In this document: positions 52 to 63,924 of the stretch, one piece after another | How positions within the stretch are numbered: the first letter of the stretch is position 1 | How the letters are laid out: every line of letters starts with the position of its first letter | Source of the DNA: an uncultured virus (IMG/VR IMGVR_UViG_3300032607_001790) | Lineage: Duplodnaviria > Heunggongvirae > Uroviricota > Caudoviricetes | IMG/VR virus record: IMGVR_UViG_3300032607_001790 | DNA: 64,000 nt | Direction: 5' to 3' (one strand) | Translations under genes and position numbers: made by a program | Notes under the pieces: generated by a model | Seen by the model: the letters and a program-made list of their open reading frames with translations, nothing else | The model's database searches: none | What the model was told of the DNA's origin: nothing

Positions 52-417
52 CTACGCGCCGGGGAACGGATATTTTTCTTTTACCGCAATACACGCTGCT
101 TTATATGCGGCAATTTGTGCGGCATCATCCTTGGCAATACCGTCTAGGTAGTCGGACGATGGAGGATATTCCGCACGGCGTTGGATTCTAATTCCATGTT
201 TAATAGCTTCTAATGCATCTGCATCATTACCGGCTGGTACAACTGCATTAATATCATGAGCAAATAAAGTCTTACTCGAAGCTTCGTACGCCTGGTATGT
301 AGTGACGTCATCCTTGTCAAGGCTAGATGTGATGGCATACGGAATAAGCCATTCGCCTTTAACTAACCGGGGGCTGGGATAGGTGTTGCCGTAATTTACG
401 AAGGTAATTTCTGACAC
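52..417 (-). CDS. Putative tail-fibre assembly/chaperone-like protein (121 aa), last gene of virion operon; overlaps RT 3' end by 59 nt
   Basis: C-terminal RRAEYPP..DYLDGI..AYKAACIAVKEKYP pattern recalled from small genes next to phage tail fibres. It does not look like the basic four-helix Avd. Confidence 0.5.
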   Translation of the reverse strand: MSEITFVNYGNTYPSPRLVKGEWLIPYAITSSLDKDDVTTYQAYEASSKTLFAHDINAVVPAGNDADALEAIKHGIRIQRRAEYPPSSDYLDGIAKDDAAQIAAYKAACIAVKEKYPFPGA

Positions 418-1399
418 GGGATTTCGAGGGTAAGACGTACTTGTTTATCAGTCTACCAGAATCCGCGTAACGCAGCCACCCTTTAAACGAACCCGTGACC
501 TGCACTAGGCGAACGGTTTCGTTTAATGTCATACGTTTAATTTTTAATCGTTCCTTAAAGCGCTGAATTGTGGTGCGTCGTATAAGAGTTTTGTCGGGCC
601 AAAAACGATAACCCAAGAAATCAATACCGCGATCTGATATAGGGAATACTTGCCAATTATTCTTTAAGATTAACTTAAGTTCTTTTAATTTTAATTCTGC
701 TTCAATTCGTAATTCATGTAAAAGATGTTTATTCTGCATAATAATAATAAAATCATCGCAATATCTGTAATAATATTTTATTTTTTTGTGATGTTTTATC
801 CAATGGTCGAAAGGACTTAAAGCTATATTACCAAAGTACTGGCTTAGATAATTGCCTATAGGTATCCCTGGTGCGGAATCAATAATAATGTCAAACAATC
901 GAAGCAAGGATTTATCTTTTATTTGTTTAGACAGCAAACTTTTTAAGATAGTATGATCTACAGACGGATAAAATTTAGTTATATCACACTTAAGTGCATA
1001 CCATCCTTCGCATTGAGGCATTATACGTTTGATGCGTCGAACACCATCATGAATACCTCTACCTGGTATTGAAGCATACGTATCACGAATAAAGCTTTTA
1101 ATCCATATCGGGCCACATATTTGCACAATTGCATGGTGAATAATGCGATCAGGAAAGAATGGTAGTGAATGTATAACACGATCTTTACCGCGTTCCTTTA
1201 ATTCAAACGTATTGTATTTACCATTAACAAAACGTTCTTCTTTTAATATATCGTGTATCTCTTTTAAGTAAGGATCTGGATTTTTACTAATTTCTCTTAT
1301 TGTGCGAATACCAGATTTACCGCGTATTGCATTTTCAAATGCTACTTTTATATTTTCTGGATCGCAAATTTCTGCATATAGATTACCTTTGCGTTTCAT
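359..1399 (-). CDS. DGR reverse transcriptase (346 aa)
   Basis: RT motifs PDRIIHHAI, KCDITKFYPSVDH, DGR-type GIPIGNYLSQ, catalytic YRYCDD and IDFLGY. It lies 122 bp downstream of a template repeat. Confidence 0.97.
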   Translation of the reverse strand: MKRKGNLYAEICDPENIKVAFENAIRGKSGIRTIREISKNPDPYLKEIHDILKEERFVNGKYNTFELKERGKDRVIHSLPFFPDRIIHHAIVQICGPIWIKSFIRDTYASIPGRGIHDGVRRIKRIMPQCEGWYALKCDITKFYPSVDHTILKSLLSKQIKDKSLLRLFDIIIDSAPGIPIGNYLSQYFGNIALSPFDHWIKHHKKIKYYYRYCDDFIIIMQNKHLLHELRIEAELKLKELKLILKNNWQVFPISDRGIDFLGYRFWPDKTLIRRTTIQRFKERLKIKRMTLNETVRLVQVTGSFKGWLRYADSGRLINKYVLPSKSRVRNYLRKLRQHLSQPPVS

Positions 1400-1521
1400 T
1401 TTTAAGCCCCCAGCGGCGCAGAGTTTTCGAGCGGACGCCTACTAACACTTTACGCAATGCAACTATTTTACCGAGTGGTAAGGCTTGCTTTGTGTGGTTG
1501 TTGTGAGAACCTGAGGGCGAT
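1400..1521 (-). ncRNA. DGR spacer (3' part of the TR-containing RNA) between TR and RT start
   Basis: Non-coding 122 nt between TR and the RT ATG, the position of the Sp element in characterised DGRs. Function is inferred from position. Confidence 0.55.
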
Positions 1522-1645
1522 GGCCGAGCGAGCTCCGATGTTATCGTTCGTATTGCCTGAATCATTGTTCAGATTCAAGTAGAAGGCTCCATCAATGGAC
1601 CCATTGTTGGAATTGCCTCCCACATTGGCTACGTGCCAGCCGGAA
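1522..1645 (-). repeat. DGR template repeat (TR), 124 bp
   Basis: Ungapped alignment to 1714-1837 gives 99/124 identity, and all 25 mismatches are at TR adenines (minus strand). In the VR frame it reads SGWHVANVGGNSNNGSIDGAFYLNLNNDSGNTNDNIGARSA with 10 AAY codons. Confidence 0.97.
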
Positions 1646-1664
1646 AAACAAAGTCAAGCCCGAT

Positions 1665-1684
1665 GTGATGTAAGTTGGCATCAC
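1665..1684 (-). promoter_or_regulatory. Hairpin downstream of VR/IMH (candidate DGR target-recognition stem-loop)
   Basis: GTGATG-8 nt loop-CATCAC inverted repeat 14 nt after the target stop codon. Confidence 0.45.
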
Positions 1685-1698
1685 TTAAGTATTATAAC

Positions 1699-3477
1699 CT
1701 AGTTTGCCGCGTAGGCCGAGCGAGCCCCGATGCTACCGTCCGCATCGCCCGAATCAAGGCTCAGATCCAAGCAGAAGGCCCCAACAAGGGACCCATGGCC
1801 GGAAAGGCCCCCCACAAAGGCCACGCGCCAGCCGGAACTTGTCCAGAGACCATCAGCGAGATACGTGGTGCTAGATGCGCCGGTCACAACAGAGGGCAGA
1901 AATACATCAGCCAATGGGAATAGTTCCTTTTGGTAAGAGCTGCTTCCGCTAGGAACCTGAGCATAAAAACTATAGCCCACGCTTGTGTCATCAGCAAAAA
2001 CTGATTGGTTATTAGTTAGATATACAACACGTTCATATACGTTAATACCATCAGCCCATGTCCATGCACGTCCATATAAATTTTCAATGCCGCGATAGCT
2101 CATGAAATCTGAACTAGAACCGCCTCCTGTATATACATTACCGCTGCGGTTACCACGGCTATTACTAAGGCCAGTTGATACGCCATAAACAGAACCTTCC
2201 ATGGAACCGTTACCTACGACTTTTTGTGAGTTGTAATCACGGTATTCAGTTACCAATAAAGTTTGAATTGCTGCTAATTCTAAATATGACTGTACATGCC
2301 AGCCAGTACCACGCAATGCAGCACGGGTACGAAATGTAGCGCGGGTTAATGAACGTGTGTTGGTCTGTCCGCTTACGCTAGCAAGATTAGTACCATCGCT
2401 ATATGCGTGGTAAGCACCCCAATAAAATGCAGTTTTATAAGTGCCATCAGTTTTAATAAATGCTGTATGCGGGCGGAAACCTTGTGCGATTAATCCATCG
2501 TTACATCCAAGACGAACCTCACGAGTATGTACACCGTTAATAAAACCATAACGCACACTAAATGCAGGAATTTCTACTACAACTTGCCCGTCAGTACCAT
2601 CTAGTACGCTAGCTACAGCACCTGCTGCTGGTGTCGCAGTTGAACTAGCAGCCACGCATTCCCATAAATATCCACCGTTGGTGACACGTTGTCCGAGAGT
2701 GAATGTACCGGCTGCCCATGCTGGTACACCAACACGTAGCAAACTATTAGTAGCTTCTGCTGCTGGTGCTCCAGTATAGGCTGTTGCTAATGATTCAGTT
2801 TCAACAATACGCAGCCAATCAGCCGATTTATTTGCGCTGTCATTAGCATCTAAATAGTATTGAACTACGCCAGAATCATTGATTACGCAACGACGTATCC
2901 TTGATTGTACGTCAATGTTGATAGTGCCGCTTAATGAGCCAGTGCTAATACTAGTGCCGGGCAAGTACAAACCATAAGCATCGTTATCATGATCCCAACC
3001 AAATACAGCGGCGTTGAGATCTTGCCAAGTCGGAACAGCGGCAGACCCGCTGCTAATTAAGGCTTGACCAGCAGTGCCAAAGTTTGCTCCGCCTACCCCA
3101 AGTGGTCCATCAATTTGGATGCGGTCGTTACCAGCATCAACAAAAAATAAATTTGCTTTTGTATCGCCCTCAACCCTAAAATCACTATCAACACCACCGT
3201 CATTGAACACCACCTCGCTGGTGCCAAACCCAACGCGCTCAACTCCATTGGTTGAGAAGGCTAGTTGGTCTTCACCAGGGCTGTAGATGCCGGTATTTTT
3301 ATCAGAAGCGAAAGCTATAGCCGGAGCTCCAACGAGTCCTCGATCCAGTCCCCTTGTGATTCCGCTAATAGTGACGCTTTTATTTGGGGTGCCAGCATCA
3401 TCAATATCCCTAATTATAAATTGATCTCCTACGGCTAGGCCATCACCTAGAGGTGTAAGCGCAGAAATTTTGGTCAT
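1699..3477 (-). CDS. DGR target: tail fibre/receptor-binding protein with C-terminal CLec (FGE/Mtd-like) domain (592 aa)
   Basis: N-terminus has a cyanophage-type fibre motif (APAIAFASDKNTGIYSPGEDQLAFSTNG). C-terminus has GIENLYGRAWTWADG...VGG...IGAR typical of CLec DGR targets and contains the VR. Confidence 0.9.
   Translation of the reverse strand: MTKISALTPLGDGLAVGDQFIIRDIDDAGTPNKSVTISGITRGLDRGLVGAPAIAFASDKNTGIYSPGEDQLAFSTNGVERVGFGTSEVVFNDGGVDSDFRVEGDTKANLFFVDAGNDRIQIDGPLGVGGANFGTAGQALISSGSAAVPTWQDLNAAVFGWDHDNDAYGLYLPGTSISTGSLSGTINIDVQSRIRRCVINDSGVVQYYLDANDSANKSADWLRIVETESLATAYTGAPAAEATNSLLRVGVPAWAAGTFTLGQRVTNGGYLWECVAASSTATPAAGAVASVLDGTDGQVVVEIPAFSVRYGFINGVHTREVRLGCNDGLIAQGFRPHTAFIKTDGTYKTAFYWGAYHAYSDGTNLASVSGQTNTRSLTRATFRTRAALRGTGWHVQSYLELAAIQTLLVTEYRDYNSQKVVGNGSMEGSVYGVSTGLSNSRGNRSGNVYTGGGSSSDFMSYRGIENLYGRAWTWADGINVYERVVYLTNNQSVFADDTSVGYSFYAQVPSGSSSYQKELFPLADVFLPSVVTGASSTTYLADGLWTSSGWRVAFVGGLSGHGSLVGAFCLDLSLDSGDADGSIGARSAYAAN
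1714..1837 (-). repeat. DGR variable repeat (VR) at 3' end of target gene
   Basis: Encodes SGWRVAFVGGLSGHGSLVGAFCLDLSLDSGDADGSIGARSA and ends in a GC-rich GCTCGCTCGGCC tract shared with TR, after which the copies diverge (IMH/IMH*). Confidence 0.97.
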
Positions 3478-3518: not shown

Positions 3519-4511
3519 CTAGGCTAAATCCACTTTATAGTTTATCCCGCGAATTATAACCGGAATGGTACTAGCAGCTACTTTCCCTGATGCAATAACT
3601 ATATTTCCACTACTCGTAAGATTATTAACCGTAAGCCCACTAGGGACGACTACTCCTGATGCCGTTTCAATTTGAAGAGAGGACAATGGCGAAGAGCGTG
3701 AAAATAAAGCGTCAGTACTTCCAGATAAAGTAACACCACTAACAACAATACCACTGGCATTGATTTTTCCGCTATTGGACCAGGTGCCTGTAAGAGCATC
3801 CCCAACTGCTGCTCTTAATGTTGTAACTGGACTACCACCAACACCACTAGCCAATAGTAAACGCGCAACTCCAGGCCCTTGAAAATGCTCAATCCTAATG
3901 TCATAAAATTGCCCTGCTGTTAAACCACTACCAGTGAAAGCGTACCAAGTTGGACCTTGCGTCTCCCATTCATCTACCACTTGAATGCCATTTAACCACA
4001 CTCTCACTCCATCGTCCGTCAACACTGCAAAAGTGTTCGAGCCATTGCCACTAGCTTGTATTTGCCCTACGGCACGAATGGAATAATTTGTTCCATTGCC
4101 TCCTTTGCCTATATGGTAAGCATCGGTAAAATCAATTGTGGGTTCTACGTTATGTGAACGAAGAGTATTAAAATATTGCCTTACGCCTGCAATATTATAA
4201 ACTGCATATGTATCGTCAAATAATTCAACCGTCAGCCCTGATGCCGGTGAAACTGTTGGAGCAACACCATGTTTTTCTGCATATAAATAAGAAGTAATGG
4301 TAGCTAATGAAGCAGTTGACGAATTAATTTGATTTTGAAAATTAGCTGAGGAATTAGCAATTTTTTGAATATCTAAATTACTGACGCCAAGTGATGCAGA
4401 CAAGCCTCTAATACGATTGTAATCATCTGTTCTCAGGCCAAGATTAATCCTGGCTAACACTGGATCAGTGAGATCACTTAAATTATTCTTTCGAACAAGT
4501 CCTCTTGTCAT
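3519..4511 (-). CDS. Tail/fibre-associated protein with PA14 carbohydrate-binding domain
   Basis: PA14 motifs TFAVLTDDGVRVWLNG and YDIRIEHFQGPG. N-terminal GLVRKNNLSDL motif. Confidence 0.75.
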   Translation of the reverse strand: MTRGLVRKNNLSDLTDPVLARINLGLRTDDYNRIRGLSASLGVSNLDIQKIANSSANFQNQINSSTASLATITSYLYAEKHGVAPTVSPASGLTVELFDDTYAVYNIAGVRQYFNTLRSHNVEPTIDFTDAYHIGKGGNGTNYSIRAVGQIQASGNGSNTFAVLTDDGVRVWLNGIQVVDEWETQGPTWYAFTGSGLTAGQFYDIRIEHFQGPGVARLLLASGVGGSPVTTLRAAVGDALTGTWSNSGKINASGIVVSGVTLSGSTDALFSRSSPLSSLQIETASGVVVPSGLTVNNLTSSGNIVIASGKVAASTIPVIIRGINYKVDLA

Positions 4512-5851
4512 GGAAAGTCCACCTCAAAAAAAGCACCATCTTCAAATTCTAAAATCTCGAATTGTTCACCTTGTAAAATTTTTGTAGAAGATAATGCTAG
4601 CGCGTCAGGATCCCACACGAAATCATACCTCCATCGAAAATATTCTTCTTGGGAATTTAATTCTGCATCACTTAATACTTCGTCGAATAAGGCTAAGGAA
4701 TGAATGTAACCCCTGAAGGCATGTCCAACACTTGTAGCATCACTAACTCCTATCACGAAATTACCATTGCTTGAATAAGTATATGATCCTGGAGCAATAA
4801 AAGATTGCCTAGAACCATTAATCCTAAATTCAAGGCCATGAGCGCTGCTTGCTCTTACTGTCGCAAGAATTGTGCCATTTGCTGGCATTGTTGCCGAGGA
4901 AGGAAAGCCACCAATCAAACTAGAGGTAAATAATCCCCATGAACCATTCCTCCAGGCACTGGAAACATTGTTTAGAGAACTAAGAATGCAATAGTCTGTA
5001 TCACCGGTAACACCATTGGTACCACTTAAACTAAACAAAACAATTAACGTTGCTCCTGTTGGAATGGAACCACCAATACCGCCCAATGACAAGAAATCAT
5101 TACTACCATCAAAAAATACAGCAGGCTTAGATGCAAGTTCACTGGTCACTAATGTTGGACGATTAGCGCTTGCGGTCTGAGATGCGCTGCCACGTTGTGC
5201 TACATCGTCCCAACGCTTTATTCCTCCATCCTCAATGGTAAAAGAACTAAATTCTCCATCAAGCCATAAAACATTAGATTGCACTGCTGTGGGCGGAGCT
5301 AAATACAATGGTGAAAATCTAGATGTGCTGCCACTATCAGTAAGCCGTAAATACGAACGATATTTAATAAAATAATTAGACCATTCTTTCGTCTCGCCAG
5401 CAAAAGTAAGGCCACTAATCGTTAAATTAGGGAGATATGTAGAGCCAGTTAAATATTGAGCGCCAGAGCTATATCCAGAAGCTGTTTTTGGCGAAAAGAA
5501 GCTATTGGTAGAAGCTGAAATAATATTGTAATTACCATTGTAATAAGCTCGATCATTATTGATTATTGTTCCTGATAAAGCACTAATTCCTAAATCTCCA
5601 TTCCTGCTAATTTTACCAGCCATTGCAGTAAATCCTGATGCTGCTCCTGTTGCTAACACACTAAGTTGGGTTTCTAATGAACTATTTAAATCCTTGCAAT
5701 TAAAATAATCACCTTCTGTTACGCCAGCAGCACTGGTGCCTACTAATAACGGTAAGTCGCTTCTAGTAATGCCAAGATTATCCCAACATGTATTTTTATC
5801 TTCTACTTCAATTAAACTTCTTGTGGCGCGAAATCCAAATTGTTGCGTCAT
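4508..5851 (-). CDS. Tail protein with C-terminal LamG/concanavalin A-like domain
   Basis: LWLDG..WDD..ASQTASANRPT..VFFDGSNDFL..FRGYIHSLALFDEVLS pattern. Confidence 0.7.
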   Translation of the reverse strand: MTQQFGFRATRSLIEVEDKNTCWDNLGITRSDLPLLVGTSAAGVTEGDYFNCKDLNSSLETQLSVLATGAASGFTAMAGKISRNGDLGISALSGTIINNDRAYYNGNYNIISASTNSFFSPKTASGYSSGAQYLTGSTYLPNLTISGLTFAGETKEWSNYFIKYRSYLRLTDSGSTSRFSPLYLAPPTAVQSNVLWLDGEFSSFTIEDGGIKRWDDVAQRGSASQTASANRPTLVTSELASKPAVFFDGSNDFLSLGGIGGSIPTGATLIVLFSLSGTNGVTGDTDYCILSSLNNVSSAWRNGSWGLFTSSLIGGFPSSATMPANGTILATVRASSAHGLEFRINGSRQSFIAPGSYTYSSNGNFVIGVSDATSVGHAFRGYIHSLALFDEVLSDAELNSQEEYFRWRYDFVWDPDALALSSTKILQGEQFEILEFEDGAFFEVDFP

Positions 5852-6819
5852 GATTGCCCCGCCTTAAGATAATAAACATAATTACCATCTCTTACAGGGA
5901 TAGCAATTGAAGGAGAACTCACAACTCCTGAGCTTACAGCGCCTTGCATTGTAAAGATATTAGTAATAATAGCATCATTTAACAGTATTGGCGTAGTTGC
6001 AGTAGAACCACTAAATGGAGTGGTAGCAAGTGACTGCACAGGAATATTGTTAATTCTTAAACTTTGAGCTTTTAAAGTGGAATTTATAGAATAATCACCT
6101 TCAGAAATGGGGGATGCTTTTGGTAGTGCGTTATTTTGAAAAACAATGCCAGAAGAAATTTGTTGACTAGCTGTATTTAATCTAGTTTGTACATTACTGG
6201 TTAAACCGTTAAGCAATAAGATATCTCTCGTGCTAAGTCTACTGATACCAGTAATTGCTAAAACATCAGCTCCTTTAATTGCAATTCCAGTTCCTGCTCT
6301 TATTGTTCTAACTGGATCACTTACATCTTCTTTATTAGCAAAGACTAAACGCGCTTCTCCTGATGCTTGGAAATGTTCAATTTGTATATTATACCATTCC
6401 CCTTGCGTTAAACCACTAGCTGTAAATGTATGCCATGTTGGAGGCTGCGTATACCATTCATTTAACACTTGAACGCCATTAATCGATACTCTCACCCCAT
6501 CATCCGCTAATATTGAAAAAGTATTTGAGCCTCCCTGCTTGGCTTGCACTTGCCCTCCTGCAAGAATAGAAAAATTATTTCCAGTGCCTCCTTTTTCAAT
6601 AGCAAACTGTTTGGTAAAATTAATTACAGGCTCTATAGTAGTTGAACGAAAAGTAGTAAAAGTGCTATTTATATCGCCCGTATCATCAAACAATTCAACA
6701 GTAAGTCCTGCAGCAGGTGAAACTGTTGCTGTAATGCCATCTCCAATATTATCCCATGTAGTCTCAATGCTTGCTACATCTGAAAGGTTATTAGCAGCAA
6801 CTAAACCCGCAAACGCCAT
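5848..6819 (-). CDS. Tail/fibre-associated protein with PA14 domain (paralog of 3519-4511)
   Basis: TFSILADDGVRVSING and YNIQIEHFQASG. N-terminal GLVAANNLSDV motif. Confidence 0.75.
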   Translation of the reverse strand: MAFAGLVAANNLSDVASIETTWDNIGDGITATVSPAAGLTVELFDDTGDINSTFTTFRSTTIEPVINFTKQFAIEKGGTGNNFSILAGGQVQAKQGGSNTFSILADDGVRVSINGVQVLNEWYTQPPTWHTFTASGLTQGEWYNIQIEHFQASGEARLVFANKEDVSDPVRTIRAGTGIAIKGADVLAITGISRLSTRDILLLNGLTSNVQTRLNTASQQISSGIVFQNNALPKASPISEGDYSINSTLKAQSLRINNIPVQSLATTPFSGSTATTPILLNDAIITNIFTMQGAVSSGVVSSPSIAIPVRDGNYVYYLKAGQS

Positions 6820-9209
6820 TACTGTTCCTCCCAGTTCATACTTACACTAGCTTCCCCAGATGCTGTGCGAGCAGTTGCTACTACAAATAATGCACCTGTG
6901 CTATCAGGTCCACCTGGGCTACCAGTTATAAACATCTTATCAAAACCAAACAACGAACTAAGGTCAAATTGATTTGCTTCCCCACTTGCTGCAAAATAAG
7001 TGGCCACGCGATCTCCTCCACGTAACACTCGTAGTCCTTGCCTGTCAACCAATACGGCAGTCAGCGGATCAGCAAGGCTATCTTCAAATTTATTCGCTAT
7101 ATAATTACTGCCACCAGCATTAACCGTGCTTTGAGTGAATCCACTAACCAATGGCCAAGATGTTTGTGCTTGTGTAGATCCACTGCCTGGATACAATCTA
7201 GTAGCAACAGACTGTTGAGCAATTACTATATCTGAAATACTACCGCCTGCGTGAGCTTCAACGACTACTCTGATTGGCCATGGTGAATTACCAGAAATTG
7301 TCATTGATCGTCCTGCCGCACTAATAGTAGTAGTACCACTTGTGGGAAACGTAACCGTAAAATCCGTAAAATGATTACACCCCCCAGGCAATGAGCCCTC
7401 TCCTGTTACTTGCCCAAACCGATTGAAATTCAATGCTGGGTAACGAGAAGCAAACCAAAGCACAGAACCAGACGCTGTAGGATTATAAGTAAGTCCTGAA
7501 GCATTTGGTAACAAACCAATTCTTACATAACCTCCTTTAAATTCTCTAAAAATTGCACCTTGAGTGACACCACTCTCTATGTATCCACTACTTACTGCAT
7601 AATTATTCATTCTTCCCAGTGTAATACTTGTTATTCCAGCCGGAATTGGACGGTCCGTTACGATACGTGTTAAATCATTTGAAATACTATTTACATGAGT
7701 AACATAAATACCTGCTCCCTCTATCTTAACTTTATTCCCCACTTGATAGTCAGCACTACCTCCTAGCTCGTTGCTTATGTCAGGGAAAAATTGTCCCGAT
7801 GGCGTGACTAAAGTGTTTGAATCACTTTGTACTACAGTAATACCGGAAGCAGCATTTGCTGTGAGATCAGTGCCTTCTCCATACATATAACTTTCCTGCC
7901 CACAATAAGCTCTTTGAAACACTAAGTCAAACCTGGTATCAGTAGTAACAAAAGTTGCAAGACTAACTGGAAATACTGCTTTTTTATTGTCTACGTTGTT
8001 AATAGTAGGTTTTACTTGTAAGCCAAAAATACTTCTTGGGGTGGCGTCAACTGGTTTAAATGTCTTCAAGCCAGCAGAACCAACAGTAATAGTACCTTTA
8101 TCTCCTCCATCGATAAATACACTACTGCCATAAAGATTAATAAAAGCTGGTGATAACGCTCCAGCCGTAGTACGTGCTTCCGTGAAAAGCCTTAGAAATG
8201 GACTTCGAAGACTAGGGAATATAAATTGATTTTCCGCGAAAAAATAATGTAAAGTAACCCATCGTGCTTCATCATGACCAATTGGAACATATGCTAAAAA
8301 CCTAGCACCAACAGCGCCATACCAGCTAAATTCAATCTTAAACATTGTCACGCGAGACAAGTTTAAATTCCATTCAGTACTACCAATATTTGGTTGAATG
8401 GGATCACCATTCCAATCGTCTCTAGCAATTTTTGATGTGCCAAGATCAGGCGAGGTGCGCACCACGTATAAGTCACCGCCTTTATCAAGCTGAAAGAAAT
8501 AACCGTCTCCAACATTATTACGACATCCCCACTTAATTGTTTCTCCTGCATAGTTACTACCAGTGGACATTCTTACACCAAAAGTAAAACCAGTCACTCG
8601 TCCTGGTTGATAGCGAAATGCTCGTTTACTTTCCCAAAATGCAAGCATGGCACCGTTAGTATGCCCGCCAGGATATCGACCAGTATTATCATCAACTAAA
8701 TAAGTAAAACTAACTGGAGGAGGAAATACATAAGCTTGAACGGCACTTTCGGCTGGAAGATGTCGCCAATAATTTCCATACGTTTTTCCGTCTTCAGTTC
8801 TAAAAGTCCATTCTCCTGGATCTGCCGAGTAAGCATAAGCAGCGGATTCGGGGCCATAGTAAAATTCTTTATCATTAATACCATAAATATTCACTGCATC
8901 AAATAAACCTAATGACGTTTCGCTACGCGGAATGCCAAGTAAGCTAACTTCTACTTCACTTGCTTGACTATTAACAGAATCAACAATTATGCTGGCGCCA
9001 TCAGAGTTAGCAATAGTAACTGGAATAATGCCTGCATCTGCAGCAAGCACTAAAGTGCCCCTTGAGTCTCCCGTTAATGATTCTTGAACAATGGGATCAA
9101 TTAATAAGTCCCCTGTAAGGAAATCAATGAGTTGAGCATCAATAAGTTCGCTACCGGCTGGCTGTGCATCATCAGGCACTTGATAATATTCAGAAAGATC
9201 TTGTGCCAT
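6819..9209 (-). CDS. Virion structural/tail-tip protein (796 aa), paralog of 9214-10959
   Basis: Shares SLLGIPR, FRYQPGRV, MFKIEFSWYGAVG, IDGGDKGT and WEEQ with its neighbour. Located in the tail region. Confidence 0.6.
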   Translation of the reverse strand: MAQDLSEYYQVPDDAQPAGSELIDAQLIDFLTGDLLIDPIVQESLTGDSRGTLVLAADAGIIPVTIANSDGASIIVDSVNSQASEVEVSLLGIPRSETSLGLFDAVNIYGINDKEFYYGPESAAYAYSADPGEWTFRTEDGKTYGNYWRHLPAESAVQAYVFPPPVSFTYLVDDNTGRYPGGHTNGAMLAFWESKRAFRYQPGRVTGFTFGVRMSTGSNYAGETIKWGCRNNVGDGYFFQLDKGGDLYVVRTSPDLGTSKIARDDWNGDPIQPNIGSTEWNLNLSRVTMFKIEFSWYGAVGARFLAYVPIGHDEARWVTLHYFFAENQFIFPSLRSPFLRLFTEARTTAGALSPAFINLYGSSVFIDGGDKGTITVGSAGLKTFKPVDATPRSIFGLQVKPTINNVDNKKAVFPVSLATFVTTDTRFDLVFQRAYCGQESYMYGEGTDLTANAASGITVVQSDSNTLVTPSGQFFPDISNELGGSADYQVGNKVKIEGAGIYVTHVNSISNDLTRIVTDRPIPAGITSITLGRMNNYAVSSGYIESGVTQGAIFREFKGGYVRIGLLPNASGLTYNPTASGSVLWFASRYPALNFNRFGQVTGEGSLPGGCNHFTDFTVTFPTSGTTTISAAGRSMTISGNSPWPIRVVVEAHAGGSISDIVIAQQSVATRLYPGSGSTQAQTSWPLVSGFTQSTVNAGGSNYIANKFEDSLADPLTAVLVDRQGLRVLRGGDRVATYFAASGEANQFDLSSLFGFDKMFITGSPGGPDSTGALFVVATARTASGEASVSMNWEEQ

Positions 9210-30801: not shown

Positions 30802-31332
30802 CTAAGCTTTCGCTCCATAAAAATACAAATCACAAGATTGAGTATTCACGCTGAATTGATGCTCAATAAAAATAGAAGAAAAATCTATGAAACCAAAATC
30901 TTCTTCCGTCAAATTTAAGTAGTAGCTCCACCCTTTTGCAATGGTCAAAGGACTGTCTTGTGGTGTTGAGCGTTCAGTGCCGTGTTCAGGGCGTCCAGTG
31001 GTAGCACAAGTAAATATCACGAGCCCTCCGCTTGCGCAAAGGCGAACCATGTTTAGGAAAGTTTCCTTCCAGAAAGGATTGTGCTCAAAGCATTCACAGG
31101 ATATACAGCAATCAAACAACTTGTCGCTGTCGTATTCGTGCCCGCTAATAACAACATCCACTCCCGGACCACTACCCACATCTACGCCCACGTATTCACT
31201 AGAAGTGAAGGCATTTCGCACTGTGCCATTGATATTCAAGCTTCCTATTTCTAAAGTTCTTTCTCCGCTAAAAGCAATAGGAAATTTAGCTTTGAGAGAA
31301 TCAATGTAATCTGATTGTTCTTTGTGAGCCAT
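30802..31332 (-). CDS. Class I SAM-dependent methyltransferase
   Basis: LEIGSLNING, YVGVD..GPGVD and FDCCISCECFEH motifs. Confidence 0.85.
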   Translation of the reverse strand: MAHKEQSDYIDSLKAKFPIAFSGERTLEIGSLNINGTVRNAFTSSEYVGVDVGSGPGVDVVISGHEYDSDKLFDCCISCECFEHNPFWKETFLNMVRLCASGGLVIFTCATTGRPEHGTERSTPQDSPLTIAKGWSYYLNLTEEDFGFIDFSSIFIEHQFSVNTQSCDLYFYGAKA

Positions 31333-31334
31333 GA

Positions 31335-32054
31335 TTAATTAATGAATCCAATGGGAGCGGTGGCAATGTTCATGCCAGGGAAAAATCTATCCCGATACAA
31401 GACCATGCCTGTAATCAGTCGTTCTGCAATAAAGGCAATTGCCCTTTTGTCATAGCCTTCAATTTTCAATAAAGATTCTTTGTTTTCCTCCCAAATTGGC
31501 GTCAATGCATCTAAAATAGTAGTCATAAACTCTTGGTATTGACTGCGTGGTCCACGCGCCATGTTGCAACCAATAAATAAATTCTGCTGCCAAATTTTAT
31601 CTATCTCTTCGCGAGAGAATAGCCATTGCCCCGTATCAGCCAGTGCCTTGGTAATTGACGGCGCATCAAATGCCGAATGCCCACTATAAAATTGCTGCTC
31701 AAGACTACAACTAAATGTTGCAAACTCTGGAACGTACAACGTGTTTTCGTCGTACCACTCGTTGCTTGGCTCAACCCAATTGCGCCGATACTGTGCATTG
31801 CCAATGTTCGCCTGCTGAGCATTATTGACTATCCATTGAATGCACGACAGTTCACCAAGGTAGGGGTTTAATGGGGAAAGAAATGATTGCTCTTCGTCAT
31901 CAAAAACATAACCTTGCTGACGCAAGTCTTCGCGCTCTCCTTCAAGTAATTTATATGCTCCGCCCATGATGGGAATCAATGGAGCGCGAGACGAATAGCG
32001 CACCGTCTTACCGGGAATACATACTGCGTAGATGGCGCAATCAGACGGTTGCAT
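31335..32054 (-). CDS. DUF4422-like polysaccharide-biosynthesis/glycosyltransferase-like protein (probable start MQPSDC at 32054)
   Basis: LNPYLGELSCIQWI, IGNAQYRR, CNM and RAIAFIAERL motifs. Confidence 0.7.
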   Translation of the reverse strand: MQPSDCAIYAVCIPGKTVRYSSRAPLIPIMGGAYKLLEGEREDLRQQGYVFDDEEQSFLSPLNPYLGELSCIQWIVNNAQQANIGNAQYRRNWVEPSNEWYDENTLYVPEFATFSCSLEQQFYSGHSAFDAPSITKALADTGQWLFSREEIDKIWQQNLFIGCNMARGPRSQYQEFMTTILDALTPIWEENKESLLKIEGYDKRAIAFIAERLITGMVLYRDRFFPGMNIATAPIGFIN

Positions 32055-32754
32055 ACACTTCTCTCGCAGCCCAAAGTTCGTTGTAATTATTAACGCCCTT
32101 GGCACCAATTCCAGTTAAGTCGCCCCCTCCAGATGGCTTGCTCCATGCCATGATCGTGCCATCGGGAAGAACAAAGGCTCTATTCTTTTGCTCATGCGTA
32201 GGCGTGAGTTCTAAGTAATCACCATAAACAAAATTAGTTTCACCACCATTAGCAGCTAATGCAGCGCCTAATAGCGATGGTCCAGTAGGGCATAATGGCG
32301 TGATGCCATAATATTTATTTTTACAATTATTAATAATCATTTCAATAGCAAATTGTAAAGCGGTATTATCAGGCTTGGAGTAAAGAACAGTAGTAGCACA
32401 AGCCCATGAAGTAAAGCTAAATCGCTGAATATCTCTAAATGCTAAGAAATCAATGCGTTCGCCCACCTCTACTGGATTAACCATTCTTACGCCAATATCT
32501 AAGTACCACCCCCCAAGTTTATTAAGTAAACAGAATCTTCCTAAATCTGCTTTGTATGAATATGGCTTCAAGCAATCATAAGCTGATACCACGCTTTCTC
32601 CATAATTTTCGCTAATAAAATTGCGTAATGTTTCTTTGTTGTACAATTGATAATCAGCGCCAGGAAATGCGCCTTGCACTGTGCCAGTGGCATGTTTCAG
32701 AAATGGTGACAATTCTGCGTCACTATCAGAAAGAAAGATTTGAGAAACGTTCAT
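32041..32754 (-). CDS. Glycosyltransferase, GT32/OCH1-like
   Basis: KADLGRFCLLNKLGGWYLDI and PTGPSLL motifs. Confidence 0.82.
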   Translation of the reverse strand: MNVSQIFLSDSDAELSPFLKHATGTVQGAFPGADYQLYNKETLRNFISENYGESVVSAYDCLKPYSYKADLGRFCLLNKLGGWYLDIGVRMVNPVEVGERIDFLAFRDIQRFSFTSWACATTVLYSKPDNTALQFAIEMIINNCKNKYYGITPLCPTGPSLLGAALAANGGETNFVYGDYLELTPTHEQKNRAFVLPDGTIMAWSKPSGGGDLTGIGAKGVNNYNELWAAREVYATV

Positions 32755-32756
32755 GA

Positions 32757-33989
32757 TTAATTAATCCGGGCAGGAGCACCAAAACCTTTAAAGGTCGATG
32801 GTGGTTGATTGTTCAAGGTGCGGTTCACGATAGAAAGCAATTGCTTTCCAATATTATCCCATTCAAATGCTGGTTCACAAGCTCGTCCATAGCACCAATC
32901 AGCATCTTTATTTAGCGCATCACGATTATCGTAATAATAAGAAAGCAACTCTGCACCATGGCTTGCTGATGGAATGCCTCTATCTAAACCATAATTTCTA
33001 TCTACTTCCCAGCTTTCAATATCCATGCGTGGCACATTGTAAAAAATCTCTTTTAAGCTTGTGTGATCAGGAACCACTTGCGCTTTTTTTGTGGCGGCAT
33101 GTTCAAAGTTCACAAGCCCCCAGCCTTCGCCCATACAAGTATTAATACCAACATCACAAGCGTTATACACTTTATTTAATTGTTCAATGGGAAGGCAATT
33201 ATTTACATCAAAATGAGGACTGGTAAGAATTAATTTACTAGCGGCGTCATAATCTTCATCGCGGGCCATCCGTTTGAATAATGGCACCAAATCCCATCCC
33301 ATATCTCTTGGCCCCATATGCAGCCATAATCGAGCATCTGGTTTATCTTTAGCAAATTGAATAAAGCTTTTAATCGTAATGTCAATGCGTTTGCGTGGTT
33401 GATTCCTGTTGCCATTAAAAACAATAAACGTATCTTCTGGTACGCCAAGATCACGCCTGCATTCGTTTTGATCAATGGGAAAAAACGAAGCTTTATCTAC
33501 ACCATGAGGAATAATATCAAGAGAACCTTCATAGCCAGCCTTGCGAACTTCTTCTGCACCAAATTCTGTATATACACCAAAGCCATCCCAGTCCACAGCC
33601 ATTTTCATGGTTTCAGGGAAAATACCATAGGAATCGATAGGGCTATACGAATAAAATTTAAACCCCAATGCTTCTTTTGATGGTTTTACTGCTTCCCATA
33701 AATTTAAATTCACCCAGAAATCATTAGTGGTCCAAATTAGGTCGGGCTTGATTTGCTGGACAATTGATGCAATACGATGAGCACCGAATGGATCATTGCC
33801 ATGAATACCAGCAGGATACACTTTGTAATTTTGCGCTTCAGGGGAGTAATCGCCCCAATAATTAACGGCTAAAACGTGTACATCCTGCTCTTTTGCTAGT
33901 ATTGGCAGTAGATGTGCGGCCACTCGTCCAAAGCCCGTTTGCACGAACGCATCGCCAACGTAAAGGATTCGCGCCATAAGAAAAACCAA
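32757..33989 (-). CDS. Glycosyltransferase, GT-B/GT4
   Basis: TGFGRV, IIPHGVD, NRNQPRKRID and YNACDVGINTCMGEGWGLVNFE motifs. Confidence 0.9.
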   Translation of the reverse strand: MVFLMARILYVGDAFVQTGFGRVAAHLLPILAKEQDVHVLAVNYWGDYSPEAQNYKVYPAGIHGNDPFGAHRIASIVQQIKPDLIWTTNDFWVNLNLWEAVKPSKEALGFKFYSYSPIDSYGIFPETMKMAVDWDGFGVYTEFGAEEVRKAGYEGSLDIIPHGVDKASFFPIDQNECRRDLGVPEDTFIVFNGNRNQPRKRIDITIKSFIQFAKDKPDARLWLHMGPRDMGWDLVPLFKRMARDEDYDAASKLILTSPHFDVNNCLPIEQLNKVYNACDVGINTCMGEGWGLVNFEHAATKKAQVVPDHTSLKEIFYNVPRMDIESWEVDRNYGLDRGIPSASHGAELLSYYYDNRDALNKDADWCYGRACEPAFEWDNIGKQLLSIVNRTLNNQPPSTFKGFGAPARIN

Positions 33990-34013: not shown

Positions 34014-34691
34014 TCAAACGGGGACTACTTGCGCCTGGCCGCGATAATAAACAACGCTGCATTTACATCTGGCACCACATTCGCAACGAATACCAGGCAT
34101 AGGCAAGCTACCAATAGAAACCATCCCACGAGCTGCATAACCAATGCAATCCCCACAATGCACGGCTTGATCATCTAGCACTCGCCGCATCATCGAGAAG
34201 CCTCGCTGTTGCTCCTTCATTTCAGTGCCTTGCCAATACGAACCACGAGCGCTTTGCGCATATAAGCCAATACGCGCCATTGCCATTGGTGCTGAAATGC
34301 GACCATCAATTAAATCACGAGCAAAGCCTTGTAGGTAGGTGTATTCAGAACGTAGACGTTGACCGATACGGCCATATTCGCTACGTCCCATTTCAGCTTT
34401 ACCGCCATAGCCAATAGTGGCAACTTGTATATGAGCGATTTTAATTGCTTCACGTACACTGCCTTGCCATTGCTCCAAGGTTATAGAACTATTGACAAGC
34501 TTTTCTGTGAAGCTTTTTAGCTGTTGCTCAAGTTTGCTGATGCGACCATCAACAATAGCACCAACTGCTTTTTTGCTTAAGAATTGCCCCTTTTCGTTTC
34601 TATAACGTCCAACTTTGCGGTCGTAAGACCACTCAGCGTCCATCCTGGTGGACATTATGGCATTACTGAAAGCAGCTAAATCATTCAACAT
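34014..34691 (-). CDS. MuF-like minor head protein (probable start MLNDL)
   Basis: Follows the portal gene. C-terminal HC..C...LPMPG..C.C...C.C motif. Confidence 0.7.
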   Translation of the reverse strand: MLNDLAAFSNAIMSTRMDAEWSYDRKVGRYRNEKGQFLSKKAVGAIVDGRISKLEQQLKSFTEKLVNSSITLEQWQGSVREAIKIAHIQVATIGYGGKAEMGRSEYGRIGQRLRSEYTYLQGFARDLIDGRISAPMAMARIGLYAQSARGSYWQGTEMKEQQRGFSMMRRVLDDQAVHCGDCIGYAARGMVSIGSLPMPGIRCECGARCKCSVVYYRGQAQVVPV

Positions 34692-36936
34692 TATCAGCTT
34701 CCAGCAATTCTTTAAATTTAGCTGGTGCTTCTTCTTTCCATTGTTGCATTGCCTTTTCAATATCTTCGTCCGAAATGAAAGCTGCTTCATCAATATCAGC
34801 CAACATCACCCCTTCAGTTTTTACTGGAGTGATTGCATCTTCTTTAGTTGCTAGAAATTCTTCATGCTTTTCAAGAAATATTGAATGCGTAGAACACGGC
34901 ATAAATATTGGACCATCTTCACCTTCTTCTTGATGGAAGCCATTACAACCAATTTTCTTTGCTGTTGCTAAAGCTTCTTCTTTAGTGGCATATGAATGTG
35001 CGGCTGGATCTTTGGCATCCACTTTGCTGCTAACCATTTTTGCCGGTCCTTTGCGGTCAGGGTCGGGGTCAGCTTTACGCTTACGGGCAACAATTGTTTG
35101 ACGCTCTTCTTTTGATAGTGCTTGTGCTTTTGCTTTAGGGAGGCATTTCGGCTTGCCTTCCTTTTCTTCGCGCCCACCACATGGTCCCATTATTTCACCA
35201 TTAGCACCAATCCTTACCCAGCCTTCTTTAAACCATTGCCCAAGATCATCTTCATTGATTTCGCCATTGTCACCTTTAAATGCACCGCTAGTGGAACCAT
35301 GCTTCTCCTTGTACATCCGCTTGTACTGTTGCACTACATAACCACTGGCATAAGCTGATGGCCATACTTTAAATTTCGCTTTTGCTGCAGCTACAGCACG
35401 GCTATGAAGAGCTGCATCAGTAAATTTCACATCACCACTCACTTCTTCTAAATCACCAGGAAGAAATAAGCCAGCAGCATCTTCCACTTCACGACTGCCA
35501 TCCATTGGCAAGGTGCCATTTTCTTCATCTAATGGATCACGACCACCAACTGGAACTGCAGGCTTGACGCTTTCTTGTTGACCAGCGCCACTTCCCGGCT
35601 GGGCCGGAAGCTCACGAGGAAGCGATGGGTCGAGAGTGAGTTCCATTGACCATTCAGAGCCGCCATAACGAGCATCTGCCACTTCTTTCGGATGAAGCAC
35701 CCCTAGTTGGATATAGCGACCATCAACAGCAGCTACACGCGCTCTAACATCAGCTTTTTCGCGTTCATTTAATTCAAATAGATCATTAAATTTAATCCGC
35801 CATGATTCAGGCAATCTGCCATTTGTTGGGCCTTCTTTGCTTAGCATTAAAATTTTCATTAAATGCTGTAATGATCTCTTATAATGCGTGGATTGATAGT
35901 CACCAAGATGTTTTGCAAAGTCACGTTCCTCACTGCGGCCAGTAGAACCAAGGCCGCCAGGACTTTCGCCAAACAAAATTGTATGTGGTATTTGTGATGC
36001 TCCAATAATATCAATGCGAAGTTTTTCTAATATTTCACCAACACCACCAAAATTCCTGCTAATAAATTCAAGCTCTTCTTTTTCTGCATCAATTGCATAG
36101 CCGCGATAGATGCTTTTGCTCATATCATTTAACACTAAGCGATCTCTTACATCATTTTCTTTGCCAGCAGCCAGCATAGAAGAAAGGCCGCGTAGTTTAT
36201 GTACAAAAATATCAAATTCCGTTAACAATGTCGCGGCAGAGCTAATACCAGTGGAATAAAAACGAAAGCTGTCATATACACTTTGCAGCGTACTCATTCC
36301 CCACCCATAGTTTCTTTGTCTAATGCGATATGGTAACCACTCACCATCAAAACGCAACACTCTATCTTTATGAATTTTTACCAATTGTGGTTGCCTAATA
36401 AGATCACCAGAAATAATTTGATAATAAGTTGCTTTTGAATAATCATACAAGCTATCTTCATTTATTACTGGTGCAATCTGCCAGCGATCTAATACTTCCA
36501 TGCCTTCTACAGCACGAATATTACGATAATCAACTGGTTGATCTGCTGACCTACCATCATCGATATAAAGCAAAATTACTGAGCCGCCAAATAACCTTGC
36601 ATTCTTGGAGGCTAATCCCAGATTTTCAAGGATATACAGGTCTTCTATTATTTGTTCGATGCCAGCCACCTCTTTTGCTGCTGCGCCTTCACCACCAAAT
36701 AAAACCTTGAACCCTTTCCTGGTGGATTGTTCTGCGACAATATCTACAATACGTTTAGGAATCCATTCGCTATAAAGATTCTCTAATTCTTCTTGGGTAA
36801 GGAAGACGATGGGGGTGGAATTGGTGTACTGGCTTTTATCTCTTCCCGTGCCCATGCCCGTTAAAGCATTCACCAAACCATCAGCCCTAAAGAAATTGTC
36901 ACCATTGTGTCCTAAATCAACAGTTTCGTTTGACAT
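34681..36936 (-). CDS. Portal protein (DUF1073-like) with about 300 aa C-terminal extension
   Basis: LY.EWIPKRIVD, ARLFGGS, IHKDRVLRF, WGMS.LQ, IPHTILFGESPGGL and F..LFEL.EREKA motifs. Confidence 0.9.
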   Translation of the reverse strand: MSNETVDLGHNGDNFFRADGLVNALTGMGTGRDKSQYTNSTPIVFLTQEELENLYSEWIPKRIVDIVAEQSTRKGFKVLFGGEGAAAKEVAGIEQIIEDLYILENLGLASKNARLFGGSVILLYIDDGRSADQPVDYRNIRAVEGMEVLDRWQIAPVINEDSLYDYSKATYYQIISGDLIRQPQLVKIHKDRVLRFDGEWLPYRIRQRNYGWGMSTLQSVYDSFRFYSTGISSAATLLTEFDIFVHKLRGLSSMLAAGKENDVRDRLVLNDMSKSIYRGYAIDAEKEELEFISRNFGGVGEILEKLRIDIIGASQIPHTILFGESPGGLGSTGRSEERDFAKHLGDYQSTHYKRSLQHLMKILMLSKEGPTNGRLPESWRIKFNDLFELNEREKADVRARVAAVDGRYIQLGVLHPKEVADARYGGSEWSMELTLDPSLPRELPAQPGSGAGQQESVKPAVPVGGRDPLDEENGTLPMDGSREVEDAAGLFLPGDLEEVSGDVKFTDAALHSRAVAAAKAKFKVWPSAYASGYVVQQYKRMYKEKHGSTSGAFKGDNGEINEDDLGQWFKEGWVRIGANGEIMGPCGGREEKEGKPKCLPKAKAQALSKEERQTIVARKRKADPDPDRKGPAKMVSSKVDAKDPAAHSYATKEEALATAKKIGCNGFHQEEGEDGPIFMPCSTHSIFLEKHEEFLATKEDAITPVKTEGVMLADIDEAAFISDEDIEKAMQQWKEEAPAKFKELLEADNVE

Positions 36937-63360: not shown

Positions 63361-63712
63361 GGCAAAACGCTTTTCTTTTGTTACTAGGCTACAACTAACC
63401 GATGGGCGTAAGCAATTTGTACGGGCCGTGGAGAATGGCGAAAAAGCCGAAATTATGCATCCGGTTTCCCGCCGTTATGCTCTCGCCAGGCTTCCTGAAG
63501 GCTATGAATGGACGATAGGAGAGCGAGTGGTGCTAATTGCTTATACGGCTGCTGGTCCAGTTCCCACTGCAATATACGGACTATTCGCAGGGTTGACGAA
63601 AGGAAGCAATGGAAGGAAAGCAGCAATTATTGAATGGGATGAAAAGCAAGGCTTGATTTCTGATATAGTTGCGATGCAACGTATCCGCCCCGTTTCTTGC
63701 ATTCCCAGATGA
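63359..63712 (+). CDS. Hypothetical protein
   Basis: ORF track. Confidence 0.45.
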   Translation: MAKRFSFVTRLQLTDGRKQFVRAVENGEKAEIMHPVSRRYALARLPEGYEWTIGERVVLIAYTAAGPVPTAIYGLFAGLTKGSNGRKAAIIEWDEKQGLISDIVAMQRIRPVSCIPR

Positions 63713-63924
63713 CCAGTTCTCAGTTAGAAACTTTTGCTGCGGCGGCTGGAGCTGCTGCTGCTCTTATTGCTATTGAGCTGGGCCTTGCGAGCTTAAGGGC
63801 TTGGCTTTTAAGTTTAGCAGTGGCATTGTTTGCGCCTGCCATTGTTCTTACTTTTTGGCAATGGCTTTTGGTCGTAGCGACCATTCGCTTCCTACTTATT
63901 GATCTTAATTCTTCTAAAAAATGA
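63709..63924 (+). CDS. Small membrane protein (probable start MTSSQ)
   Basis: Two hydrophobic stretches, ATGA-coupled. Confidence 0.5.
   Translation: MTSSQLETFAAAAGAAAALIAIELGLASLRAWLLSLAVALFAPAIVLTFWQWLLVVATIRFLLIDLNSSKK

Follow-up and report, generated by a model that had tools for sequence, protein, structure and literature searches.

An accessory-free diversity-generating retroelement, probably recently active, at the tail-fibre tip of an S-CBS4-like Synechococcus siphophage

In the diversity-generating retroelement (DGR) of Bordetella phage BPP-1, whose parts are ordered mtd-avd-TR-brt, a template repeat (TR) is transferred adenine-specifically to a variable repeat (VR) in the C-terminal C-type-lectin (CLec) domain of a tail fibre, and a structured RNA (RT-10; Weinberg et al., 2017, PMC5737381) lies between the TR and the reverse transcriptase (RT) gene. 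An avd gene was found in 74% of the 372 DGRs surveyed by Wu et al. (2018, PMC5758913), who also described an accessory-free “Architecture A” (29%, 75/372) and a Lineage 3 without avd, and who inferred Avd-independent homing as a profile search found no distant avd copies. Phages with a predicted lytic lifestyle have further been reported to carry DGRs widely (Cook et al., 2021, PMC7981956), and viral DGRs targeting tail proteins have been catalogued across biomes (Roux et al., 2021, PMC8144416). The locus described here occupies positions 52–3,477 of a 64-kb stretch of DNA from an uncultured virus (IMG/VR record IMGVR_UViG_3300032607_001790; the whole stretch, out of a probable full genome of 69.5 kb, is hereafter called the window), and very probably holds an intact, recently active accessory-free DGR; the phage is an S-CBS4-like freshwater Synechococcus siphophage, and the DGR closes its tail-fibre module. 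The element belongs to an already described DGR type in a new host and phage setting, and the details that are new are the likeness of its spacer RNA to RT-17, a fossil copy in phage S-EIV1, the presence/absence polymorphism of a 1.3-kb unit and the linkage of the gene at 52–417 to the fibre gene and not to the RT.

Like Architecture A1 (target, TR, RT) and Lineage 3 of Wu et al. (PMC5758913), the cassette has a TR-RT core without avd, HRDC or MutS-like genes, a VR at the 3' end of the gene for a CLec-type target, all parts on one strand, and an association with a phage; the cyanophage setting is not mentioned in the part of that paper used here. With BPP-1 it shares the adenine-specific transfer into the C-terminal CLec domain of a tail fibre, the structured RNA between TR and RT, and an RT that is 31% identical with the same motifs, while it differs in having no Avd, a VR-TR gap of 53 nt instead of a gene, a spacer RNA that resembles another Rfam family (RT-17), no significant hairpin after the VR and no integrase seen. 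The closest named RTs (39–43% identity over more than 90% of the length) belong to crAss-like gut phages (cr55_1, cr50_1 and others) and Psychrobacillus phage Perkons, which also have related target tips, a small open reading frame (ORF) overlapping the RT end and, before the RT of cr55_1, an RT-17-like match (32.9 bits); these phages are of other orders, hosts and habitats, and their post-RT ORFs are not detectably homologous to ORF52, the ORF at that position in the window. TaqVP, from a Thermus aquaticus DGR (PDB 5vf4), is the best structural match of the fibre tip and has the CLec fold with a C-terminal VR, but its sequence is only 17–19% identical and it is a bacterial protein, not a phage fibre. 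The cultured Synechococcus phage S-EIV1 (KJ410740) carries at 19.5–22.0 kb the same tip, VR, TR and ORF52 homologue (96.9% nucleotide identity over the 1.8 kb at 1309–3099 of the window, 85% over 47–469), and differs in that RT residues 28–308 are deleted, so that the element is dead, and in a backbone unrelated to that of the window. The genes of this S-EIV1 cassette (L001, KJ410740.1, locus 5594–8110), in which target, VR and TR are intact, are annotated as hypothetical only; in the literature searched we found no text joining S-EIV1 with a DGR, and no cyanophage DGR by title or abstract among the matches listed. Since DGRs without Avd and DGRs of lytic phages have already been described, the lack of Avd or of an integrase is not unusual; an earlier reading of the window from its letters alone (the sequence-only reading) had called an accessory-free DGR in this context unusual, a claim that finds no support in view of Wu et al. 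(PMC5758913), Cook et al. (PMC7981956) and the same layout in the relatives.

Target, VR, TR and RT lie on the minus strand throughout (Table 1). The sequence-only reading had given this layout (VR-53 bp-TR-122 bp-RT on the same strand, with 25 differences in 124 positions, all at TR adenines) exactly and with every coordinate correct. A repeat finder pairs 1517–1645 with 1709–1837 at 79%, and within the 124-nt core all 25 mismatches (25/25) fall at TR adenines; 25 of the 33 TR adenines are changed in the VR (16 A>G, 5 A>T and 4 A>C), and the first difference at a base other than adenine lies 2 nt past the core. It is clear that such an adenine bias cannot be produced by chance. The VR ends 12 nt ahead of the target stop codon. 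A 3' boundary of the IMH type would consist of a GC-rich identical stretch, a divergence of the repeats and a hairpin; here the last 12 bases identical in TR and VR are GC-rich and the two repeats diverge beyond them, while no significant hairpin was predicted downstream (z 0.00). The target stop is separated from the TR by 53 nt and the TR from the RT start codon by 122 nt, and by the ORF call neither gap holds an ORF, and none of Avd size would fit.

Table 1. Features of the cassette, in window coordinates.
Feature	Position	Strand	Remarks
Target ORF	1699–3477	minus	592 aa, tail-fibre-type; ORF call
VR	1714–1837	minus	last ~42 codons of target; from comparison with TR
Spacer from target stop to TR, 53 nt	1646–1698	minus	without ORF
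TR	1522–1645	minus	33 adenines, chiefly in AAY codons
Structured spacer RNA, Rfam RT-17-like	1400–1485	minus	includes P1 hairpin 1468–1481
Long-range helix	1406–1518	minus	1511–1518 pairs with 1406–1413, enclosing the spacer RNA
RT ORF	359–1399	minus	346 aa
TR + spacer + RT unit, 1298 nt	397–1694	minus	natural populations either have or lack it as a block
ORF52, 121 aa, GTG start	52–417	minus	overlaps RT 3' end by 59 nt

Three independent lines (S-EIV1, protein relatives and metagenome contigs) indicate, by comparison of sequences, that the DGR is active in nature. Relative to the window, S-EIV1 has 0 differences in the TR and identical spacers on both sides, and its 124-nt VR has 22 differences, 20 of which fall at TR-adenine sites. 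Homologues of the target tip number 762; of these, 14 clusters reach an identity of 89% or more over the last 303 aa, and in the 15 proteins that these clusters form with the window the mean number of residue types per column is 3.2 in the VR (547–588) vs. 1.24 outside it; the variation within the VR is confined to adenine-bearing codons, and the residues between these codons are invariant. The third line draws on freshwater and viral metagenomes, in which the stretch was found in 10 studies and of which four runs were analyzed as assembled contigs. In run X1 one contig spans 630–1705 (RT and TR) with 0 differences and the fibre body is equally clean, and at 1705–1818, in the VR, the assembly shatters into many short alternative contigs. 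Of the 18 variable places listed in the VR, 17 coincide with TR-adenine sites, against an expectation of 27%, and not one place within the TR is listed in any of the four runs. The adenine-restricted polymorphism that had been proposed for 1714–1837 but not for the TR is thus found in the contigs, and the VR varies across the population, where its invariance had been named as the sign of an inactive element.

The target falls into the PHROG family phrog_5302 (“tail protein”, E 1.9e-104); it has no Pfam match, and a phmmer search with it against PDB sequences gave nothing. An AlphaFold 2 model of its last 303 residues (aa 290–592) has a mean predicted local distance difference test score (pLDDT) of 86.7, and in a Foldseek search with this tip model the best match is TaqVP (5vf4; E 3.4e-11, probability 1.00, template modelling score 0.58), followed by Mtd of BPP-1 (1yu0; E 1.7e-3) and, more weakly, by formylglycine-generating enzymes and TvpA (E 0.08 to about 1), all of which are C-type-lectin folds. 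The C-terminal approximately 300 aa are accordingly modelled as a predicted CLec-fold receptor-binding domain with the VR at its end, while the N-terminal anchor varies between phage backbones. Both the family assignment and the fold model agree with the earlier proposal that the DGR diversifies a tail-fibre tip. In the TR, 18 codons are able to change the amino acid and none can become a stop, which gives a coding capacity of ~3.8e16 proteins. Upstream of the target, at 3519–6819, two paralogous PA14-domain proteins (3519–4511 and 5848–6819; ~70% identical over 390 nt) flank a Laminin_G_3-like protein, and together these are a carbohydrate-binding fibre set next to the diversified fibre.

The RT matches RVT_1 in Pfam (5.2e-14) and the phage RT family phrog_1423 (5.4e-110), and is 31% identical to the BPP-1 RT (bRT) over 323 aa (E 1e-44). 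In the alignment IGNYLSQ stands opposite IGSLTSQ and YCDD opposite YMDD, and the RT carries no extra C-terminal domain. The [LIV]GxxxSQ motif together with YxDD defines the RT of the DGR clade. Matches to the RT occur in 148 phage records, the best full-length ones being the crAss-like phages and Perkons already named. The compact layout is common to every fetched relative of the window RT: in 21 of the 21 related loci analyzed the VR-TR gap is 12–151 nt and the TR-RT gap 102–233 nt. The record nearest to the window (G001, 23.6 kb) is without an RT. In the closest IMG/VR relative by RT (L034, a contig of L002; RT 86% identical), TR positions 39–96 occur twice in the VR at 3009–3209, a partial internal duplication. 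The RT gene has a G+C content of 35.1%, compared with 42.1% in the window as a whole and 47.2% in the target, which hints at a different origin of the RT.

The mechanism that we propose would begin with a transcript of the TR and the 122-nt spacer that is copied by the RT, which would misincorporate opposite template adenines, and the resulting cDNA would then replace the VR. By analogy with the spacer RNA of BPP-1, the conserved RT-17-class spacer RNA would probably position or prime the RT. The expected outcome is that 18 codons are randomized on the ligand-binding face of the CLec tip, giving about 4e16 proteins with no stop possible. We infer a priming role for the spacer RNA, drawn from the BPP-1 case, an RT that needs no other protein to work with, and an advantage to the phage in switching its receptor or host range.

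The spacer RNA resembles Rfam RT-17 (RF03020), whose model matches the window at 1400–1485 over its full length with 33.3 bits (E 9e-5 to 1e-3), below the gathering score of 40.4. At the same position in relatives RT-17 scores 59.4 (L008) and 44.6 bits (L013), both above the gathering score, and then 39.5, 37.9, 32.9 (cr55_1) and 30.5, while L025 gives 70 bits for RT-18. An alignment of 25 spacers shows compensatory changes in 3 of the 4 pairs of the P1 hairpin, with 0 of 25 sequences breaking a pair, and covariation backs both the P1 and P2 helices. Taken jointly, the three helices have 78.8% of cells paired vs. 63.5% in shuffles (0 of 500 reach the observed value) and 35–45% when slid. The long-range helix shows U-A, U-G and C-G at one pair among 11 close relatives, and, with 67% of its cells paired over all 25 sequences, is supported in the close subclade only. 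This helix covers a purine-rich stretch 7–11 nt before the RT start codon, and folding of the RNA might in this way be linked to translation of the RT. Weinberg et al. (2017, PMC5737381), who placed RT-10 between TR and RT of BPP-1, speculated in the part of their text used here that other RT motifs serve other DGRs; the present match agrees with this and gives a likely role to the orphan Rfam motif RT-17.

We searched for Avd and other accessory proteins in the window and in its relatives. Pfam was run on 79 of the 89 window ORFs of at least 90 aa (the omitted 10 are 90–99-aa frames antisense within longer genes), and no Avd, HRDC or MutS-like family was found among the 79. The Avd of BPP-1, used as a control, matches PF22296 and not PF05635, so the relatives were searched with both. 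PF05635 was found in 0 of 26 related records and PF22296 in 1 of 27, the one being the BPP-1 control itself (2.2e-37); in five further records, among them a genome of 44.5 kb that is 99% complete and has an RT with 67% identity, each gave 0 of 5. In all, 31 related records were searched for both families. A phmmer search with BPP-1 Avd (bAvd) over 613 six-frame segments of the window returned a single match of 11.6 bits (E 0.009) at 63697–63924, which was dismissed as compositional, being a hydrophobic, alanine-rich 75-aa ORF without an Avd match in Pfam. The description of the element as Avd-less therefore stands for the window ORFs, the six frames and the 31 relatives, and the cassette agrees with the accessory-free type, as no Pfam match to an avd, HRDC or MutS-like family accompanies its TR-RT core among the 79 ORFs scanned.

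It is also important to consider the gene that follows the RT. ORF52 has no match in Pfam even at E 10. Its family comprises 23 clusters and is conserved over the full length, and the AlphaFold 2 model (pLDDT 89.3), made up of four strands and three helices, is not a helical bundle. The protein is acidic, with an isoelectric point (pI) of 5.03 vs. 9.55 for bAvd. Foldseek with the model against PDB found no match at E<=0.001, a wide VIA-align search gave generic helical-hairpin rows only (Z up to 6.0), and the nearest named Atlas cluster is XkdW (32% of members, score 0.89), which is a lead only. CH1, for which there is no public model, is 160–169 aa in size vs. 121 aa for ORF52. Avd is a basic four-helix bundle of about 120–130 aa, and the identification of ORF52 as an Avd was rejected on the lack of PF22296 and PF05635, the strand-helix model and the acidic composition; an Avd homologue in 52–417, which the sequence-only reading had named as evidence against itself, was thus not found.

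The distribution of ORF52 points instead to the fibre. ORF52 is encoded in 24 IMG/VR loci: a full-length RT lies upstream of it in 16, two are truncated at contig ends, and from the other six the RT has been lost. In these six (L030, L042, L045, L046, L047 and L051), as in S-EIV1, which is the seventh case, ORF52 is kept intact beside the target. Where the RT is missing, ORF52 starts at an ATG of its own with GGAG ahead of it. The C-terminal 45 aa occur in 56 loci, mostly in proteins of 83–110 aa (phrog_9114/2687), with no RT or target match, and 2 of 5 upstream proteins sampled there gave weak tail or tail-fibre PHROG matches. Since ORF52 is kept with the target in RT-less records and its module occurs without an RT, we read it as a fibre-module gene and not as a helper of the DGR: as judged from these comparisons it stays with the fibre gene, not with the RT, and is probably a fibre assembly or accessory protein, assembly being the inferred function. 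This bears out the earlier view of 52–417 as fibre-linked. The S-EIV1 homologue is annotated too short, as 82 aa from an internal ATG. Thirteen more distant relatives (L006–L011, L015–L020, L024 and L026) have a basic ORF of 96–98 aa (phrog_19665, pI about 9) directly after the RT, and other relatives have acidic ORFs of 88–123 aa there; the window is without a homologue of any of these post-RT ORFs. Comparison of five groups of small post-RT ORFs by hhalign found no convincing homology (the best pair, C-E, has a probability of 27%), and hidden Markov models of groups B–E found nothing in the six frames of the window.

The genes of the window are those of a siphophage: tape measure, gpM/L/K/I/J-type tail, capsid, portal, terminase, ribonucleotide reductase (RNR), helicase, a primase-like ATPase, Sak and a nuclease. 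Relative to Synechococcus phage S-CBS4 the capsid protein is 86.8% and the portal 62.5–67% identical, and no integrase family was found among the 79 ORFs scanned, so the picocyanobacterial siphophage with RNR and primase and without integrase that the sequence-only reading had described is recovered, and the backbone is S-CBS4-like. In S-CBS4 itself neither the RT nor the target was found. The cassette or its remains are carried by S-EIV1, G029 (44.5 kb) and G030 (78 kb), in which the window capsid protein had no match (in a search with no control genome) and the window portal had none either (in a search that detected S-CBS4). Fibre tips at 89–93% identity are joined to proteins of 399–828 aa, and in three of the runs contigs depart from the window sequence at 3093, where similarity to S-EIV1 ends as well (3093–3099); this place is a recombination joint between the fibre-tip module and backbone-specific N-termini. 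Since the tip and cassette are shared by unrelated backbones with a common break at 3093, the tip-plus-DGR module moves between backbones.

The RT is also lost. S-EIV1 keeps only RT residues 1–27 and 309–346, C-terminal RT remnants are found in L042 and L046/L047, and in L030 (1943–1981) and a contig of run X7 the TR and RT are wholly gone, with 396 joined to 1695 by 36 other letters. Run X5 has loose ends matching this RT-less joint, and RT-less and RT-bearing forms coexist in X5 and X7; the contig depth in X7 is 24.5 for the RT-less and 6.9 for the RT-bearing form, values that are indicative only. Between the VR of L030 and the TR there are 31 differences, 29 of which lie at adenine sites, and this adenine footprint shows descent from a diversified ancestor.

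Several observations count against an active, accessory-free element. Two of the 22 VR differences in S-EIV1 are not at adenine sites, and window position 1773, beside an adenine site and itself non-adenine, is a recurrent VR variant in 11 contigs of run X1 and in S-EIV1, which may reflect either an RT error at a base other than adenine or a variant TR in another lineage. The metagenome data are assembled contigs and not raw reads, and therefore give no allele frequencies or full substitution spectrum; parts not covered by contigs were not interpreted. The window RT-17 score of 33.3 is below the gathering score of 40.4, and the DNA fold of the 53-nt spacer has no hairpin better than shuffled sequence (z 0.00), where BPP-1 has one. 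Avd was not found in the 64-kb window, and a distant accessory gene is possible in the ~5.4 kb of the probable genome that lie outside it. In a rival reading the element is a fossil here, its VR differences being old standing variation reshuffled by recombination of fibre alleles with no current retrohoming, which would be in keeping with the frequent RT loss in this lineage (7 of 26 cassette-bearing records), with the adenine-footprint VRs kept by RT-less genomes such as L030 (29/31), and with the recombination breakpoints that flank the module, where loose ends appear at 3093 in three runs. We think this quite unlikely, as the window RT ORF is intact with its catalytic motifs, the TR is intact and identical to the S-EIV1 copy, and in run X1, where the RT-bearing form is dominant and no RT-skipping joint is listed, the VR splits at adenine sites between flanks that are single clean contigs.

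The remaining alternatives give the element a protein partner. An Avd-type or other known accessory gene may lie in the ~5.4 kb beyond the window or be too divergent for the models, given that the window is 64 kb of a probable 69.5 kb, that conservation among avd genes is very low according to the part of Wu et al. (PMC5758913) used here, and that the ten antisense frames of 90–99 aa and all ORFs below 90 aa stood outside the Pfam scan. The chance of this seems very small to us, since neither Avd family occurs in complete or near-complete relatives of the same RT clade (G007, 95%; G020, 93%; G021, 100%; G029, 99%; G030, 100%; and complete S-EIV1) in searches that detect BPP-1 at 2.2e-37, and in S-CBS4 the annotation of the corresponding stretch gives an endonuclease besides small hypothetical and virion structural proteins. 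A partner might also be close at hand, if ORF52 were a new helper that replaces Avd, is translationally coupled to the RT and acts in cDNA synthesis. The beginning of ORF52 lies 59 nt inside the 3' end of the RT, all 16 full-length RT-bearing close relatives have a homologue behind their RT, the ORF52 family is well conserved over the whole length, and an ORF of 88–123 aa stands right behind the RT in nearly all wider relatives; in a fold search of viral models, moreover, ORF52 has weak matches (E 0.03–0.09) to small proteins whose size is that of the ones annotated right behind, and overlapping, the DGR RT in crAss-like cr50_1 and cr55_1. A helper would not, however, be expected beside the target in seven RT-lost records, intact and with its own GGAG-preceded ATG in the RT-less form, nor would its 45-aa module be expected in 56 loci without RT or target, some of them behind weak tail or tail-fibre PHROG matches; ORF52 is acidic (5.03) whereas Avd is basic (9.55), and hhalign of ORF52 against the other post-RT ORF groups reaches a probability of 0.5% at best. 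On balance we judge a role of ORF52 as helper improbable, and retain the reading of an active accessory-free DGR with ORF52 as a gene of the fibre module.

With this in mind, we put forward tentatively, and with more doubt than conviction, a wider reading in which this clade needs no protein partner and an RT-17/RT-18-class RNA does the scaffolding and priming that are shared by Avd and the spacer RNA in BPP-1. In the same reading the helix over the ribosome-binding site would tie RT translation to RNA folding, and the self-sufficient 1.3-kb unit would be gained or lost as a block and would travel with the fibre tip among S-CBS4-like, S-EIV1-like and 44-kb backbones. If this were true, populations would mix “evolving” and “frozen” receptor-binding alleles. 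The element links a DGR with a picocyanobacterial host and with phages that have relatives in culture, and it offers a compact natural system in which RT-bearing, RT-deleted and RT-less forms of a 1.3-kb TR-RNA-RT unit are found in the same lakes. Such a system could be utilized to address what an Avd-independent DGR needs and what a cyanophage gains from hypermutation of its fibre tip.

Two observations concern other parts of the window. A methyltransferase gene and three glycosyltransferase-like genes occupy 30802–33989, an unusual position between the head genes and the portal gene, and a role of these genes in glycosylation of the virion or the host surface is possible. The portal protein itself (34681–36936) carries C-terminal DUF5872 and DUF3721 domains.

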